Below, one piece after another: positions 5,698-58,805 of a stretch of 64,000 bases of DNA (positions within the stretch are counted from its first letter, which is position 1; the number at the start of each line of letters is the position of its first letter). The DNA is taken from positions 4,814-68,813 of the forward strand of contig CAZBPC010000002.1 of assembly GCA_964493715.1 (NCBI GenBank), in the 5' to 3' direction. The translations under genes were made by a program, and so were the position numbers. Origin of the DNA: an uncultured archaeon (GTDB lineage: Archaea > Asgardarchaeota > Lokiarchaeia > Sigyniarchaeales > SOKP01). Under the pieces are notes generated by a model that was not told where the DNA came from, searched no databases, and saw only the letters and a program-made list of their open reading frames with translations.

Positions 5698-6150
5698 GTG
5701 AATGAAAAGAAAGTGAAAATTCCCGGATTTGAATACATAGATCACACCGCAGATGTTCAAGCTCGTTGCTACGGACGTACTCTCGAACAAGCATTTGAAC
5801 AAACTGCCTATGCAGTTATGAAAACAATCTCACCTAATTTGGAGAAAATCCTCCCAATAGAGAAAAAAGAAATTACAATTAAAGCAGAAGATAAGCAAGC
5901 TTTATTATTTGATTTTTTATCTGAATTTTTATACATCTTTGATGTTGAAGGGTTAATATTTTCCCAAATAATCGTTGAGAAAATTAAAAAAAGGGGGGAT
6001 GAATTTACCTTAATCGCGAATGCCAGCGGAGAGAAATTTAATAATTTACGTCATGAAATCGGGATAGAAGTGAAAGCAATCACGTATTCATACATGAATA
6101 TTGAAGAAAAAAGTGATAAAACCATAATCGATATTGTTTTTGATATATGA
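5698..6150 (+). CDS. Archease (RtcB activator)
   Basis: 150 aa. N-terminal FEYIDHTADV motif typical of archease. Convergent with rtcB and abutting it with zero spacer. Confidence 0.85.
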   Translation: MNEKKVKIPGFEYIDHTADVQARCYGRTLEQAFEQTAYAVMKTISPNLEKILPIEKKEITIKAEDKQALLFDFLSEFLYIFDVEGLIFSQIIVEKIKKRGDEFTLIANASGEKFNNLRHEIGIEVKAITYSYMNIEEKSDKTIIDIVFDI

Positions 6151-7685
6151 TTATCCCTTAACAACTCCTACTGGCACTAAACGTACGATCTTTTCAATAA
6201 TTCCAAGATCGTGGCTAACTTGAACTACTTGATCAATATCTTTATAAGCTCCTGGAGCTTCTTCAGCAACTACTTCATTCGAAGCAGCTCTTATCGAAAT
6301 CCCTTGATTTTTAAGGCTATCTGTCAATTGTCGAATATTAGGAAGGTACTTTCGTTTTGCTTTAGATCTAGACATCACTCGACCTGAACCGTGTGCTGTT
6401 GAACCAAATGAGAGATCCATAGCTTTTGGTCTTCCAACACAAAGATATGAAGCTGAACCCATGGTACCTGGAATCAACGCTGGTTGTCCAATACTTTTAT
6501 AATCCTGTGACAATTCTGGATGACCTGGAGGAAAAGCTCGCGTAGCTCCTTTTCTATGTACATTTAATAAGATCTTTTTACCATCCACTTCGTGTTCTTC
6601 TATTTTAAGGATATTATGAGCAACGCCATATATCAGCGTGAAATCTAATTCCTCAGCACTCTGTTTAAAATGTGATTGAAATGATTCTCTTAACCAATGA
6701 GTAATTAATTGCCTATTATTAAATCCAAAATTCGCAGCACAAGCCATTTGACTTAGATACATATCTGCTTCTGGTGTATTTGCAGGCACACAAGCGAGCT
6801 CTCTATCGGGAACCTCAATCTTGTATTTTTTCATGGCTTGTTCTATAGCTCTCAACGAATCAGTACATATTTGATGACCTAAAGCTCTTGAACCTGTATG
6901 AACCATCACTGTGACTTGATTTTCTTGAAGAATTCCTAATTTCTTTGCTATATCTCTATTGAAAATTTTATCTACTTTTTGTATTTCTAAAAAATGGTTT
7001 CCACTTCCTAAAGAACCGAGTTGTTTTATACCTCTTTGCTTTGCTTTCTGTGAAACTAATTCTGCATTTGCATTTTTTAAAAAACCATTCTCCTCACAGT
7101 GTTTTATATCTTCTTTCAAGGCATAGCCATTATCAAGTGCCCAGTTTAATCCATTATTTAGAACATCATCTAAATCTGAGAAATTTATGTTTAATTTTCC
7201 TTTTGACCCTAATCCTGAAGGAATATTCTTGAATATTGTGTCTAATAAAGTTGGAATTTTTTTTTGAACATCTTTCATCATTAAATTCGTTCGTAGTAAT
7301 CTTACACCACAGTTAATATCGTCTTTGGCATAAAAGCCTATGCTCTTATGTATCCAACGCCGCCAGGCGAAATCATACCATCTGTGGCATCCGTTCCTGC
7401 AACTCCTCCAATACAAAAACCGTATCCTTGATGAGCATCAGATAATGCGATTGCATGTTTTTGAATGCCCGGCAAACAAGCAACATTACTTATCTGATCA
7501 AGAGTTCTATCTTGTTTAATCTTTTCCATGATATATTCATTGGCGTAAATATGTACTGGGACTTTCATTTCAAATTTTTTAATTGTCCCCTCAACTCGTG
7601 CCATCAAAGTTTGCGGTTCGATCTCATAAATATTTTCAGCAATTTTTTTTACATTCATTATCTTCAATAATTCTACATTTATCAA
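6151..7685 (-). CDS. rtcB: RNA-splicing ligase RtcB, interrupted by a 29-nt BHB mini-intron (exons 7685-7352 and 7322-6151)
   Basis: Two overlapping ORFs (7338-7685 and 6151-7416) in different frames. The first ends [10 protein letters not shown], and the second carries [20 protein letters not shown] and HGSGR motifs. Removing 7323-7351 gives one 501-aa RtcB. Confidence 0.85.
7323..7351 (-). other. Putative bulge-helix-bulge intron in rtcB mRNA (29 nt)
   Basis: Sense RNA: UUGG[AU|A]CAUAA-GAGCAUAGGCUU-UUAUG CCAA[AG|A]. It has a perfect 4-bp central helix, two 3-nt bulges and a 5-bp inner helix. Excision restores GVGY-DINCG in frame. Confidence 0.65.
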
Positions 7686-7828: not shown

Positions 7829-9970
7829 TTAAGTATGAATAAATATTCCAGCAGATAATCCAAAATTATTGGAATCTTCTAAACATAGATTATAGATTTT
7901 CAATGGTTCACACTCGATGATTTCAATACTAATAATTTTATGATTAATCACTTTATGACTTCTGGTCAGATGCCCTGATAATCCTCTCTGTGAGCCAAAA
8001 ATTTTGTCACAAAGAGGACAAGGGAAGCAACCAACTTCTCGTACCTTATGGTCTGGGTTTTCAGGACAGTATCTTATATGAGTACTTAATCCTCCATTTC
8101 CCTTGAATAATTCATTACAAAAAGGACATGATATTAATTCATTGTGAACCTCAGCATAGTGTTTTTTTAATTCACTTGCCCCAATTATCATTTTTCCACA
8201 TTTATGACAAACCATCTTTCCATTTTTTGCCTTTTCTGATTGATTCTTCCGTCCTTTTTCACTCCTTACATATGCTTTTGAAGCTTTTTGAAATTTGTTC
8301 TGCAATTCTAACCAATGAGGTGGATGAGTGTTTTTATAATGCTCAATCATTTCCGCTCTGCCATAAACCAATTGACCACATATCTTACATATCATTTTGC
8401 CTTGTTTTCCTATTTCGGAGGACTTTTTCCGCCCCTTTTCACTTTTATTATATTTTACCAAATACTCTTTACCCCTTTTCCCAGCAGCCCTCGTCATATC
8501 ATAAAAGGCTTCTGATTTTATATAATCACTTATATTTTTCGATGCTCTTTTTGAGTGTCTTTTTTGAAATTGCGGATCTCGATGTAACTTTCTTATATTC
8601 TCTGAAGCCATTTCAGAATAGAAATCTGGATATAATTTATGTGCTCTCCCCCATCCAATTTCCCCTTTTACTGCTCTTTCACTGGCGAATTTACTATGGA
8701 TTTCAAAATGCTCTTTAAAAAATGTTCTCCTGATATTAGAGGGATTATTATTATATTTATCGAAATCGATATGATGCCTTATTTTCCCCATATCTTTTGT
8801 ATAAACATTATCCCTAATATTGTAATCATCAGCTAAATTATGTATATAATCATACGTTCCTGTTCTCGGATTATAGACAACCAGATAATCTTCTAATTTT
8901 AATCGCTTATCTTTATAAGATCTGTTAGCTACGGATATATCTTTAGCATAATAAATTTTTAAAGGCATTAATGAATCTTCATTATGCAAATGAACAACTT
9001 CAATTAATTTATTATTCCTGTTTATAAAAGCACAATTATAATCACAATATATTATGGTAGAATCATCCAAGGTAATTTTTATTAATTTTGATACATCTCT
9101 AATTCTTTTTATTTTTTCTATTTTTGAAATAACAATATTAGAGTATCGATCTAATGAAAAACAATACAATTCATTCCCTAAATTACATTCTTCCATTAAT
9201 TTTAAGAGAGTTAAATCACGTCCATCAGCTAGGTGAATTTTACTACTTCCTATTATACCCCCTTTTCTAAAATTCCTCTTTTCCTGTATATTATTAATGG
9301 TGCTGGACATTTTTGATTGAATTTTGTTAAAATCATAAGTATTTAAATCCCTAAATATCATTGCTTCAAATTTATCAATCAATCCCTTATTCCATAATTC
9401 AGAAACTAATATGAATACTTGTTTTACTAACCATCTTAGGTATATTATGAATCTCTGGCGAAAGATTGGGTACAATTTTACCTTATTGTGTATTTTTGTT
9501 AAATTAGAATAAAAATCTGCCAGGGTTATCTCATTTAATTTATCCAAAAAATCTTCTTCAACATCATTATGTAAAATAGGCATTAGAGCCCCCGATAATA
9601 AATTAAGCAATTTCACATCAAGCTCTACATTATCGAATTTCTTATCTAAAGTTTTTTCAAGATACCTAATATTGAAATAGATCATACGGGCAAGAACAAG
9701 TGTTAAATTGTCGATGAATCCAATCTGAATATCATGATCTTCGGCAATAATCTCAACAGGGTGTTCAATAGAATTGAGAGTAGTTTCGGAATTATTTTCT
9801 TCTGTATTATCCAAATTAGTGAGATTGATTTTATCCAACTTGCTTCCACAACGCTCGCAAAAATGTATCTTATCCTCATAGCCAGATATTTCTCTTATCT
9901 GATTATTTAAAATGCGCCATTCACAATTAGGGCAACTATAATAGTAAAGTCGACTATTGTCTACTACCAT
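7829..9970 (-). CDS. Zinc-ribbon / degenerate Hint (intein-like) / HNH / 4x C2H2 zinc-finger protein
   Basis: 713 aa. N-terminal CPNC...CERC ribbon. Hint block A-like SKIHLADGRDLTLL. HNH motif RHHIDFDKYNNNPSNIRR...H. Four C-X2-C-X12-H-X3-4-H/C fingers. Intein block F/G-like IYNLCLEDSNNFGLSAGIFIHT sits at the very C-terminus. Confidence 0.6.
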   Translation of the reverse strand: MVVDNSRLYYYSCPNCEWRILNNQIREISGYEDKIHFCERCGSKLDKINLTNLDNTEENNSETTLNSIEHPVEIIAEDHDIQIGFIDNLTLVLARMIYFNIRYLEKTLDKKFDNVELDVKLLNLLSGALMPILHNDVEEDFLDKLNEITLADFYSNLTKIHNKVKLYPIFRQRFIIYLRWLVKQVFILVSELWNKGLIDKFEAMIFRDLNTYDFNKIQSKMSSTINNIQEKRNFRKGGIIGSSKIHLADGRDLTLLKLMEECNLGNELYCFSLDRYSNIVISKIEKIKRIRDVSKLIKITLDDSTIIYCDYNCAFINRNNKLIEVVHLHNEDSLMPLKIYYAKDISVANRSYKDKRLKLEDYLVVYNPRTGTYDYIHNLADDYNIRDNVYTKDMGKIRHHIDFDKYNNNPSNIRRTFFKEHFEIHSKFASERAVKGEIGWGRAHKLYPDFYSEMASENIRKLHRDPQFQKRHSKRASKNISDYIKSEAFYDMTRAAGKRGKEYLVKYNKSEKGRKKSSEIGKQGKMICKICGQLVYGRAEMIEHYKNTHPPHWLELQNKFQKASKAYVRSEKGRKNQSEKAKNGKMVCHKCGKMIIGASELKKHYAEVHNELISCPFCNELFKGNGGLSTHIRYCPENPDHKVREVGCFPCPLCDKIFGSQRGLSGHLTRSHKVINHKIISIEIIECEPLKIYNLCLEDSNNFGLSAGIFIHT

Positions 9971-37793: not shown

Positions 37794-38483
37794 TTGATTT
37801 GTGGATTAGATGAGGCTGGCAGAATATAATTCGTATCGAATGATATGTTAACAGGACCTGTTCTAGGCCCAATGGTTATTTGTGGTGTTTGTTTCCTCGA
37901 AGAAAATATCCAATCTCTAGAAACTTTAGGAGTGAAAGATTCAAAAAAACTAACTATAAGAAAAAGAACCGAATTATCCGCAATATTAAAATCAATTTGC
38001 TTTTCTTATCAAAATGTTATAATTTCTCCTCAAGAAATTGATGAGAGGATTTCATTGAGAATTTCATTAAACCGACTTGAAGAATTAAAAATGGCCCAAA
38101 TACTGAATCATCTAAAGCCAGAGTTAGTATATATAGATGCCGCTGATGTGAGAGAAGAGCGATTTGGACGGTCTATAGCTAAATTATTAAATTATTCACC
38201 AAAAAAAATCATTTCCAAACATAAAGCTGATGATCTTTACCCAATAGTTTCAGCTAGCTCAATTATTGCTAAAGATATGAGAGATAGACTCATTGAAGAA
38301 CTAAAAAAAAATTATGGAGATTTTGGTTCAGGATATCCCTCAGACGAACGTAGTACGACATTTCTTCGAAAGTGGATAATAGATAATAAGAAAGCTCCAC
38401 CTATTGCAAGAAAATCATGGGAAACTACGAAAAAAATAATAAGAGAAGAAATATTTAATAAGAAGATTACTGATTATGTATAG
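37794..38483 (+). CDS. rnhB: Ribonuclease HII, interrupted by a 30-nt BHB mini-intron (exons 37794-37822 and 37853-38483)
   Basis: A TTG start gives MICGLDEAGR, followed by an in-frame TAA-containing 30-nt insert and then GPVLGPMVICGV. The joined sequence reproduces the universal G(I/L)DEAGRGPv.GPmV motif. The spliced ORF is 219 aa. Confidence 0.85.
37823..37852 (+). other. Putative bulge-helix-bulge intron in rnhB mRNA (30 nt)
   Basis: UGGC[AG|A]AUAU-A-AUUCG-UAU-CGAAU-G-AUAU GUUA[AC|A]. Central helix UGGC/GUUA (2 Watson-Crick pairs and 2 G.U), two 3-nt bulges, and a 9-bp inner stem. Excision joins AG|A GGA to give DEAGR-GPV. Confidence 0.6.
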
Positions 38484-54775: not shown

Positions 54776-54882
54776 TGGCGGGCTATGAGGGAATTTCGCA
54801 ATCATCCTATTCGGACGAATCTATCGAACCCCCGACCCCCCGGTTAAGAGCCGGATGCGCTACCTAGCTGCGCCAATAGCCC
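54776..54882 (-). tRNA. tRNA-Lys(CUU) with 30-nt intron in the T-loop (59/60) and encoded CCA
   Basis: Cloverleaf read by hand: acceptor GGGCUAU/AUAGCCC, D arm GCGC-AGCUAGGUA-GCGC, anticodon arm UCCGG-CUCUUAA-CCGGG, T stem GGGGG/CCCUC. Intron 54793-54822 with BHB UUCG[AU|A]...CGAA[AU|U]. Confidence 0.85.
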
Positions 54883-54920: not shown

Positions 54921-55021
54921 CGCAGACGGAGGGATTCGAACCCCCGAGCGCTCACGCGCACCGGTTTACTCGAATATGAAAACACTCAAGACCGGCGTCT
55001 TACCAACTAGGCTACGTCTGC
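54921..55021 (-). tRNA. tRNA-Ser(UGA) with 18-nt canonical 37/38 intron
   Basis: Acceptor GCAGACG/CGUCUGC, anticodon stem CCGGU/ACCGG, loop CUUGAG..A, long variable arm GCGC-GUGA-GCGC, T arm GGGGG-UUCGAAU-CCCUC. Intron 54967-54984 with BHB CUUG[AG|U]...CGAG[UA|A]. Confidence 0.85.
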
Positions 55022-57265: not shown

Positions 57266-57346
57266 GCAATCGTCGCCTAGTGGTATGGCGCTGGTCTGCT
57301 AAACCGGTGTCCGACGGACTCGTGGGTTCGATCCCCACCGATTGCG
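57266..57346 (+). tRNA. tRNA-Ser(GCU), intron-less
   Basis: Acceptor GCAAUCG/CGAUUGC, anticodon arm CUGGU-CUGCUAA-ACCGG, long variable arm GUCC-GAC-GGAC, T arm GUGGG-UUCGAUC-CCCAC. Confidence 0.85.
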
Positions 57347-57365
57347 TTTATATGATAAAAACATC

Positions 57366-57468
57366 GGGCCAGTGGTCTAGTGGCTATAAATCGTGAGATC
57401 TTCTTATAATTGATTAGGACGCCACGCTTACACCGTGGATATCGGGAGTTCGAACCTCTCCTGGCCCA
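57366..57468 (+). tRNA. tRNA-Val(UAC) with 31-nt intron in the D-loop
   Basis: Acceptor GGGCCAG/CUGGCCC, anticodon arm CCACG-CUUACAC-CGUGG, T arm GGGAG-UUCGAAC-CUCUC. The D arm GUCU-AGUGG/UA-GGAC is split by 57384-57414, with BHB UAGU[GG|C]UAUAA...UUAUA AUUG[AU|U]. Confidence 0.8.
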
Positions 57469-58433: not shown

Positions 58434-58805
58434 ATGGAAGAACATAGGTTTTTTAATATCGTAGAAAAGCTAAAAGAATATGAAGGAATGGATGAGATAT
58501 TTCTATTAAATTCTGAAGGAGAAGTGATCTATAAATCGGAAGATTTTACTTTAACAAGCGATGAAGCAAAGACACTTTTAAAAGCGTGGAAAGAAAAAGA
58601 ACCTGCTATTATTTTTCACGATCTGCGTTTTGCGATTCTTAAAAATGATGAAATTCAATTAGCTGCAAAAAATATAACAGGTGGAAAGGGAAATATAGTA
58701 GGATCCATAACTAAAGAAGGAGATTATCTTGTTGCGCATACAAGGGATGAAGGATTGATCCTACTAGAATGGTCAATTTTTATAAATAAAGTGGCATGGA
58801 GTTAA
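58434..58805 (+). CDS. Profilin-like protein (Asgard-type)
   Basis: 123 aa. IFLLNSEGEVIYKSEDFTLTSDEAKTLLKAW...LRFAILKNDE...AKNITGGKGNIVGSITKEGDYLVAHT follows the profilin pattern (dG.vwa.s.gF.l...E...l...F...G.ky..l..d...gkkG..G...t...lv). Confidence 0.55.
   Translation: MEEHRFFNIVEKLKEYEGMDEIFLLNSEGEVIYKSEDFTLTSDEAKTLLKAWKEKEPAIIFHDLRFAILKNDEIQLAAKNITGGKGNIVGSITKEGDYLVAHTRDEGLILLEWSIFINKVAWS

Follow-up and report, generated by a model that had tools for sequence, protein, structure and literature searches.

A probable non-canonical BHB intron of 30 nucleotides in the D-arm of a tRNA-Val(UAC) gene from Promethearchaeota

The D-arm of the tRNA-Val(UAC) gene at positions 57366-57468 (plus strand) of the analysed DNA, a stretch of 64,000 nucleotides of about 30% GC from an uncultured archaeon (the window), is interrupted by an insert of about 30 nt. 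The insert is real, and its identification as an intron stands even where the exact placement originally proposed for it fails. It is best explained as a non-canonical BHB intron that interrupts the D-arm in a functional Promethearchaeota tRNA gene, hence as an element of a known kind, and we assign this explanation as a whole, including 57387/57388 and 57417/57418 as its likeliest borders, a probability of about 0.6. The explanation is carried by the insert itself, by exons that are conserved while the intron diverges, by a covarying hairpin and by a homology-based placement, all of which are demonstrated. The features concerned are listed in Table 1.

Table 1. Positions within the window of the tRNA-Val(UAC) gene, its predicted intron elements and related features. 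A slash within a bulge marks the predicted cut.
Feature	Position	Strand	Remarks
Archease gene, RtcB cofactor	5698-6150	+	Pfam PF01951, E = 1.6e-41; adjoins rtcB
rtcB BHB intron, 29 nt	7323-7351	-	exon 1 7352-7658, exon 2 6151-7322
rnhB BHB-type insert, 30 nt	37823-37852	+	exon 1 37794-37822, exon 2 37853-38483
tRNA-Lys(CUU), encoded CCA	54776-54882	-	30-nt T-loop intron 54793-54822, position 59/60
tRNA-Ser(UGA)	54921-55021	-	canonical 37/38 intron 54967-54984, 18 nt; used to verify the BHB register rule
tRNA-Ser(GCU), intron-less	57266-57346	+	19 nt upstream of tRNA-Val
tRNA-Val(UAC) gene including insert	57366-57468	+	discriminator A at 57468; CCA not encoded
Proposed central helix, 5' strand	57382-57385	+	G18 G19 C20 U20a
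Proposed 5' bulge AU/A	57386-57388	+	predicted cleavage 57387/57388 by the BHB rule
Likeliest intron, 30 nt, AAAUCGUGAGAUCUUCUUAUAAUUGAUUAG	57388-57417	+	tRNA position 22/23
Intron hairpin (inner helix h')	57389-57411	+	57389-57398 with 57402-57411; loop UCU 57399-57401
Proposed central helix, 3' strand GAUU	57412-57415	+	last base C in locus L003, pairing with G18
Proposed 3' bulge AG/G	57416-57418	+	predicted cleavage 57417/57418

In its unspliced form, the gene was missed at 57366-57468 by ARAGORN in both default and intron mode, and the match of the Rfam tRNA model was restricted to its 3' two-thirds (57415-57460, 20 bits). Deletion of 57384-57414 in silico resulted in a clean 72-nt tRNA-Val cloverleaf, and each of three alternative removals (30, 31 and 28 nt) gave a tRNA-Val accepted by ARAGORN. 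A covariance model of the orthologs scored the tRNA with 52.5 bits. Apart from the insert the tRNA is complete, and its cloverleaf returns upon removal. Downstream of the gene, the open reading frame 58434-58805 looked profilin-like and was set aside, Pfam giving no support.

Orthologs were collected by a neighbor-gene scan with the proteasome alpha subunit, which returned 80 loci, mostly from Promethearchaeota and related Asgard archaea (the closest 97% identical), and further tRNA-Val copies were added by a pattern scan of metagenomes; the resulting loci were numbered L001-L091. In most of the 80 loci, tRNA-Val(UAC) is syntenic, 1.6-2.8 kb upstream of the proteasome alpha gene. An insert at the site of the window occurs in nine distinct orthologous genes (alignment A1). 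With the borders at 57388-57417, only 2 of the 73 exon columns vary among these nine, as opposed to about 22 of the 30 insert columns, and the helices of the drifting intron are preserved by compensatory changes. At least 22 distinct orthologs are insert-free, with the D-arm GGUUAUGAC or a close variant; in others, 23/24, 33/34, 53/54 or 59/60 are occupied, with a maximum of three inserts in one gene. A single orthologous tRNA-Val gene thus holds from zero to three introns, distributed over five sites (22/23, 23/24, 33/34, 53/54 and 59/60). The contrast between exons and insert, together with the empty and shifting sites, indicates a functional gene and a dispensable insert, and presence and absence among close relatives indicate a fast turnover of introns in this lineage. 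Since eight of the nine insert-bearing orthologs are close kin, the arguments from conservation rest heavily on the remaining one, L025. A different metagenomic tRNA-Val(UAC) at L085 (2249-2350) has a 22-nt D-loop insert (GGUUAU UUGCCCUUGGCAAAACAAAAAU GAC), for which none of the registers tried agreed with the BHB rule.

The BHB rule applied here was derived from the known pairing between anticodon region and intron, that of nucleotide 32 with intron position -3. It requires a 3-nt bulge located 3' of each strand of a 4-bp central helix, with the cut after the second base of each bulge. The canonical intron of tRNA-Ser(UGA) in the window fits the rule as CUUG[AG/U]...CGAG[UA/A]. The T-loop insert of tRNA-Lys(CUU) reads UUCG[AU/A]...CGAA[AU/U], with a central helix UUCG/CGAA paired at 4 of 4 positions and an outer helix of 5 bp; the borders given by ARAGORN for the unspliced form of this gene were wrong. 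Calibration was based on the tRNA-Val orthologs, which hold 57 distinct introns, nine of them at the window's own site. Throughout this set, the register that restores a canonical tRNA is the register predicted by the rule. The central helix is paired at 4 of 4 positions in 39 introns and at 3 of 4 in another 17, the inner hairpin mostly comprises 7-10 bp, and the intron is exactly 30 nt long in 37. The commonest 5' bulge is AU/A, and the 3' bulge begins with A in every one of the 57.

To place the insert, a covariance model was built from 16 intron-less orthologs. It aligned the window as GGCUA[31]GACG against GGUUA[1]GACG of the model, so that the extra bases fall at positions 21-23 and not at 19/20. 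Removal of 57388-57417 leaves GUCU-AGUGGCUA-UGAC, one base off the D-arm of the intron-less orthologs; the product is GGCUAUGAC, compared to GGUUAUGAC in the latter, the canonical D-arm being GGYUAUGAC. The length of 30 nt is the mode of the calibration set. The hairpin starts one base past the 5' cut of this register and ends six bases short of the 3' cut, and RNAalifold returned the same hairpin of 9-10 bp. Its helix (columns 24-33 with 37-46) is paired to 91% across the nine orthologs, with exchanges between U-A, U.G and C-G, between G.U and A-U, and between G.U and G-C. A covarying hairpin of 9-10 bp that abuts the splice bulges matches what BHB geometry requires. In the central helix of the window, GGCU/GAUU, the pairs are G.U, G.U, CxA and U.G; in L025 the helix is GGCU/AGUU and pairs at 4 of 4 positions, the CxA mismatch being compensated by C-G, and in L003 the last pair turns into G-C. 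The outer helix consists of two base pairs, G15-C25 and U16-A24. Over the entire structure 88.8% of the cells are paired, a value matched by none of 500 shuffles, while slid controls gave 34-54%; shuffled inserts at the same borders attained the observed pairing in 0.07% of cases for the window and in 0.004-0.5% for the orthologs. The calculated stability of the BHB is higher than at the originally predicted borders in seven of the nine orthologs. Against these borders, the central helix of the window is weak, with three G.U pairs and one CxA, and the hairpin likewise has a CxA mismatch in the region of its third pair (C57392 x A57408). Moreover, the energies calculated for the window sequence favor the BHB at the original borders by 2.5 kcal/mol.

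The original prediction had the same D-arm split by a 31-nt intron at 57384-57414 (plus strand, position 19/20). The split was borne out, and the pairings described for it are present: a central helix UAGU/AUUG, paired at 4 of 4 positions with two G.U pairs, the bulges GG/C and AU/U, and a 5-bp inner helix UAUAA/UUAUA. The 7-nt D-loop AGUGGUA left after removal is indeed that of tRNA-Ser(GCU). The register has the top score in the window, gives the window sequence its most stable BHB conformer and is rare among shuffles (0.08% at the fixed site, 1.4% at any site leaving a valid tRNA). Its central helix is paired at 4 of 4 positions in eight of the nine orthologs, 89% of the cells are paired, and AUUG and CUAUAA are kept in eight orthologs. 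Nevertheless, we consider these borders unlikely and probably displaced by three to four bases from the true ones. Covariance-model folding, the check that the prediction itself had named, located the extra bases away from this site, by which the exact placement fails and not the intron. As the register has no outer helix, its 3' bulge is effectively one of 5 nt. The inner helix is reduced to 2-3 bp in most orthologs, with pair 23-40 occurring in only three of the nine, and it competes with the covarying hairpin of 9-10 bp for the same 3' strand. The central helix drops to 2 of 4 positions in L025, and in L088 the 3' bulge would start with U, as opposed to A in all 57 introns of the calibration set, of which the 31-nt length and the GG/C bulge are also atypical. 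The mature D-arm would differ from that of all intron-less orthologs by one deletion and one substitution, and it would vary (UAG, UAA or CAA) between near-identical genes. Finally, the first five bases assigned to the intron, CUAUA, are invariant in all nine orthologs, whereas two of the first three columns assigned to the 3' exon vary while the remaining exons are near-invariant.

A further alternative, a 28-nt intron at 57389-57416 with the central helix GCUA/UGAU and the bulges UA/A and UA/G, would share its inner helix with the 57388-57417 register and comes close to it in energy, and inserts at the same site in L048 and L054 form 4 of 4 central-helix pairs in this way. However, it would leave a 10-nt D-loop, AGUGGCUAUA, two bases above that of any intron-less ortholog, it has no outer helix, and its length is less typical of the calibration set; we regard it as improbable. 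Other removals of 30 nt that lead back to a D-loop of 8 nt (AGUGGCUA or AGUGGUUA) were discarded, as their central helices pair badly by hand inspection. The insert might also be retained, the gene being either a pseudogene or a tRNA with an expanded D-loop bearing an extra hairpin. The most stable calculated fold does consist of the D-stem with the hairpin as an extension of the D-loop, and in every ortholog a plain cloverleaf with the hairpin has a lower calculated energy than each BHB conformer. Against retention, strong purifying selection holds the exons constant while the insert drifts, comparable inserts of orthologs sit within stems (23/24 and 53/54), where removal is obligatory, the borders follow BHB spacing, and the ligase system (rtcB and archease) is encoded, which leaves retention very improbable. 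An excised intron with borders at 57387/57388 and 57417/57418 remains the preferred reading.

A strict hBHBh' motif, with two 3-nt bulges, a fully paired central helix of 4 bp and a further helix at either end, was not found in tRNA-Val at any position compatible with a valid tRNA; the 31-nt register has no outer helix, and the register at 57388-57417 has CxA in its central helix. The gene does contain the relaxed form (HBh'/hBH), with at least one well-formed bulge between two helices and the 4-bp spacing of the cleavage sites. The minimum-free-energy fold of the precursor had a non-tRNA shape from which the BHB was absent. RNAalifold and RNAfold returned an alternative helix at 57373-57386 (columns 8-21 of A1), in which U8-C12 pairs with G18 G19 and CUA; as this helix does not vary among the nine orthologs, they neither support nor contradict it, and it might compete with folding of the tRNA prior to splicing.

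In the archaeal pathway, EndA cuts both bulges of the BHB and RtcB ligates the products with the help of archease. Accordingly organized splicing of tRNA-Val would start from a precursor that is probably transcribed jointly with the upstream tRNA-Ser. The D-arm region would then refold so that exon and intron form the relaxed BHB, a broad-specificity EndA would cut each 3-nt bulge behind its second base, and RtcB with archease, both encoded in the window, would join the exons and circularize the intron; cleavage at the predicted bonds and exon ligation would thus yield the mature tRNA. The host does encode RtcB and archease, and rtcB itself requires removal of a 29-nt insert. No endA gene was found among the ten open reading frames checked in the window. 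Between tRNA-Ser(GCU) and tRNA-Val lie the nucleotides 57347-57365, where visual inspection revealed no separate tRNA-Val promoter at a suitable distance, and an oligo-T run is located 3' of tRNA-Val; the two tRNAs are probably co-transcribed. Asgard EndA is reported as an (alpha-beta)2 enzyme with an L1 loop, which is linked to cleavage of relaxed motifs (PMC5829648).

Two protein-coding genes of the window are interrupted in a similar way. The rtcB insert follows the BHB rule as UUGG[AU/A], a 9-bp hairpin and CCAA[AG/A], and its removal gives a 492-aa protein that aligns gap-free with the Pyrococcus RtcB structure across the catalytic motif GGVGY/DINCG. A search with the exon-1 peptide returned numerous N-terminal RtcB fragments of 104-111 aa, some of them on contigs of 30-103 kb, and in all six loci fetched (L094-L099) a 29-nt insert is located at the same codon. 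Across these and the window, seven loci with exon-1 identities of 74-99%, the BHB is 98% paired and five pairs show compensatory double changes, a level reached by none of 500 shuffles. In L092 rtcB is uninterrupted while the RtcB protein is 94% identical, so the intron site can be empty. A restored frame and motif, a covarying BHB and an empty site in a relative are hence all observed for this intron. Next to rtcB, 7829-9970 (minus strand) encodes a 713-aa open reading frame rich in zinc-finger-like Cys-x2-Cys/His repeats, the middle segment of which resembles an inserted domain by eye, and the gene preceding rtcB in L095 gave faint zf-C2H2 hits. The insert of rnhB (RNase HII) is located after DEAGR and contains an in-frame stop; its removal restores the catalytic motif DEAGR/GPV, gap-free compared to a solved RNase HII. 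It has the motif and borders of a BHB intron, UGGC[AG/A], a hairpin of 10 positions with one mismatch and GUUA[AC/A], as judged from the window sequence alone. As the inserts of rtcB, rnhB and the tRNAs obey one rule, their common architecture is genuine, and for the tRNA-Val intron the 30-nt register agrees with it better than the 31-nt one.

It had originally been proposed that the tRNA and mRNA inserts form one family of about 30-nt elements. This holds for architecture and size (29 nt in rtcB; 30 nt in rnhB, tRNA-Lys and tRNA-Val), the common plan of about 30 nt being 1 nt, a hairpin of 9-10 bp, 4 nt and 2 nt. It does not hold for sequence: pairwise local alignments of the window introns were no better than shuffles, and over 1415 cross-site pairs of ortholog introns the mean z was 0.05, the only convincing outliers being orthologs that the script had assigned to a different site class. 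A transposing sequence family of the Thermoproteales type was accordingly not recovered among these introns. The likeness of UAUAA/UUAUA to the inner helix of the rtcB intron does not indicate homology, and UUAUA varies among the tRNA-Val orthologs. The resemblance of the first 10 nt to the start of the rnhB insert amounts to 8 of 10 positions (nominal p 0.0014 for a comparison picked post hoc), and four of the ten bases are probably exon. Such parallels are best read as AT-richness and helix constraints, and the shared design would follow from all of these introns being substrates of one endonuclease and ligase. A mechanism of spread common to them, as was also proposed, is possible. More broadly, we tentatively consider it possible that near-uniform BHB introns of about 30 nt colonize and leave tRNA and protein genes, rtcB included, in Promethearchaeota.

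Non-canonical BHB introns of tRNA genes have reportedly been described for Crenarchaeota, in particular Thermoproteales, by Marck and Grosjean in 2003 and Sugahara in 2008. Positions 20/21 and 22/23 are already listed as non-canonical sites and are textbook for Crenarchaeota (PMC4090602). The introns described here resemble those of Crenarchaeota and Thermoproteales in that they are short and located outside 37/38, with 3-nt bulges, a 4-bp helix, a relaxed form and predicted processing by EndA and RtcB, and also in that several introns per gene are possible (PMC4090602). They differ in their host, a member of the Promethearchaeota of about 30% GC, and in a strikingly uniform length, 37 of 57 being exactly 30 nt. 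Intron-rich tRNA genes have also been described in the Asgard lineages Atabeyarchaeia and Freyarchaeia (PMC11291895); the Asgard affiliation, an abundance of non-canonical and multiple introns and a predicted endonuclease of broad specificity are shared (PMC11291895, PMC5829648), whereas the parts consulted deal with counts and endonuclease types only, the tRNA-Val intron, its polymorphism and its borders being worked out here. For rtcB and rnhB, a precedent is the BHB intron in the Cbf5 pre-mRNA of Crenarchaeota, which also interrupts a protein gene and has been gained and lost among relatives (PMC2738675); here, however, other genes in another phylum are concerned, and the rtcB mRNA encodes its own sealing ligase. 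The notion of BHB introns spreading between sites and genes is shared with the families of transposed introns in Thermoproteales (Fujishima 2010, cited in PMC4090602), yet those comprise near-identical introns at different sites, a similarity not seen here. A tRNA-type endonuclease and ligase acting on mRNA is reminiscent of HAC1/XBP1 splicing, where the animal ligase is RtcB (PMC4090602, PMC3400036). Unlike in the present case, Ire1 and not the tRNA endonuclease makes the cut in eukaryotes, where it is regulatory; there is no sign of regulation here. A literature search for BHB introns in Asgard protein genes returned nothing specific, and no description of the conserved rtcB intron or the 30-nt uniformity was met in a limited library, which is no proof of novelty. 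Non-canonical BHB introns and the richness of Asgard archaea in introns are already known.

Taken singly, the tRNA-Val intron is a matter of annotation: the gene escapes standard tRNA finders, so that tRNA-Val(UAC) will appear to be lacking from genomes of this lineage, and if the borders favored here are correct, the most obvious fold does not give the real splice sites. The broader pattern, with zero to three introns over five sites, nearly all built on one 30-nt plan that also occurs in rtcB and rnhB, is of more interest and provides a tractable system for the gain and loss of archaeal introns spliced by proteins. Specialists may be surprised by the conservation of the rtcB intron and by the constancy of the 30-nt length. 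As the rtcB intron lies in the mRNA of its own sealing ligase, maturation of that mRNA would need the ligase it encodes, and the question is raised whether mRNA splicing by the tRNA machinery is routine in Asgard archaea. If introns of this type do colonize genes, the tRNA-Val intron would belong to a colonizing population of about 30-nt elements, which would mean that the archaea most closely related to eukaryotes gain introns by an active, size-constrained process, on DNA or via RNA intermediates.
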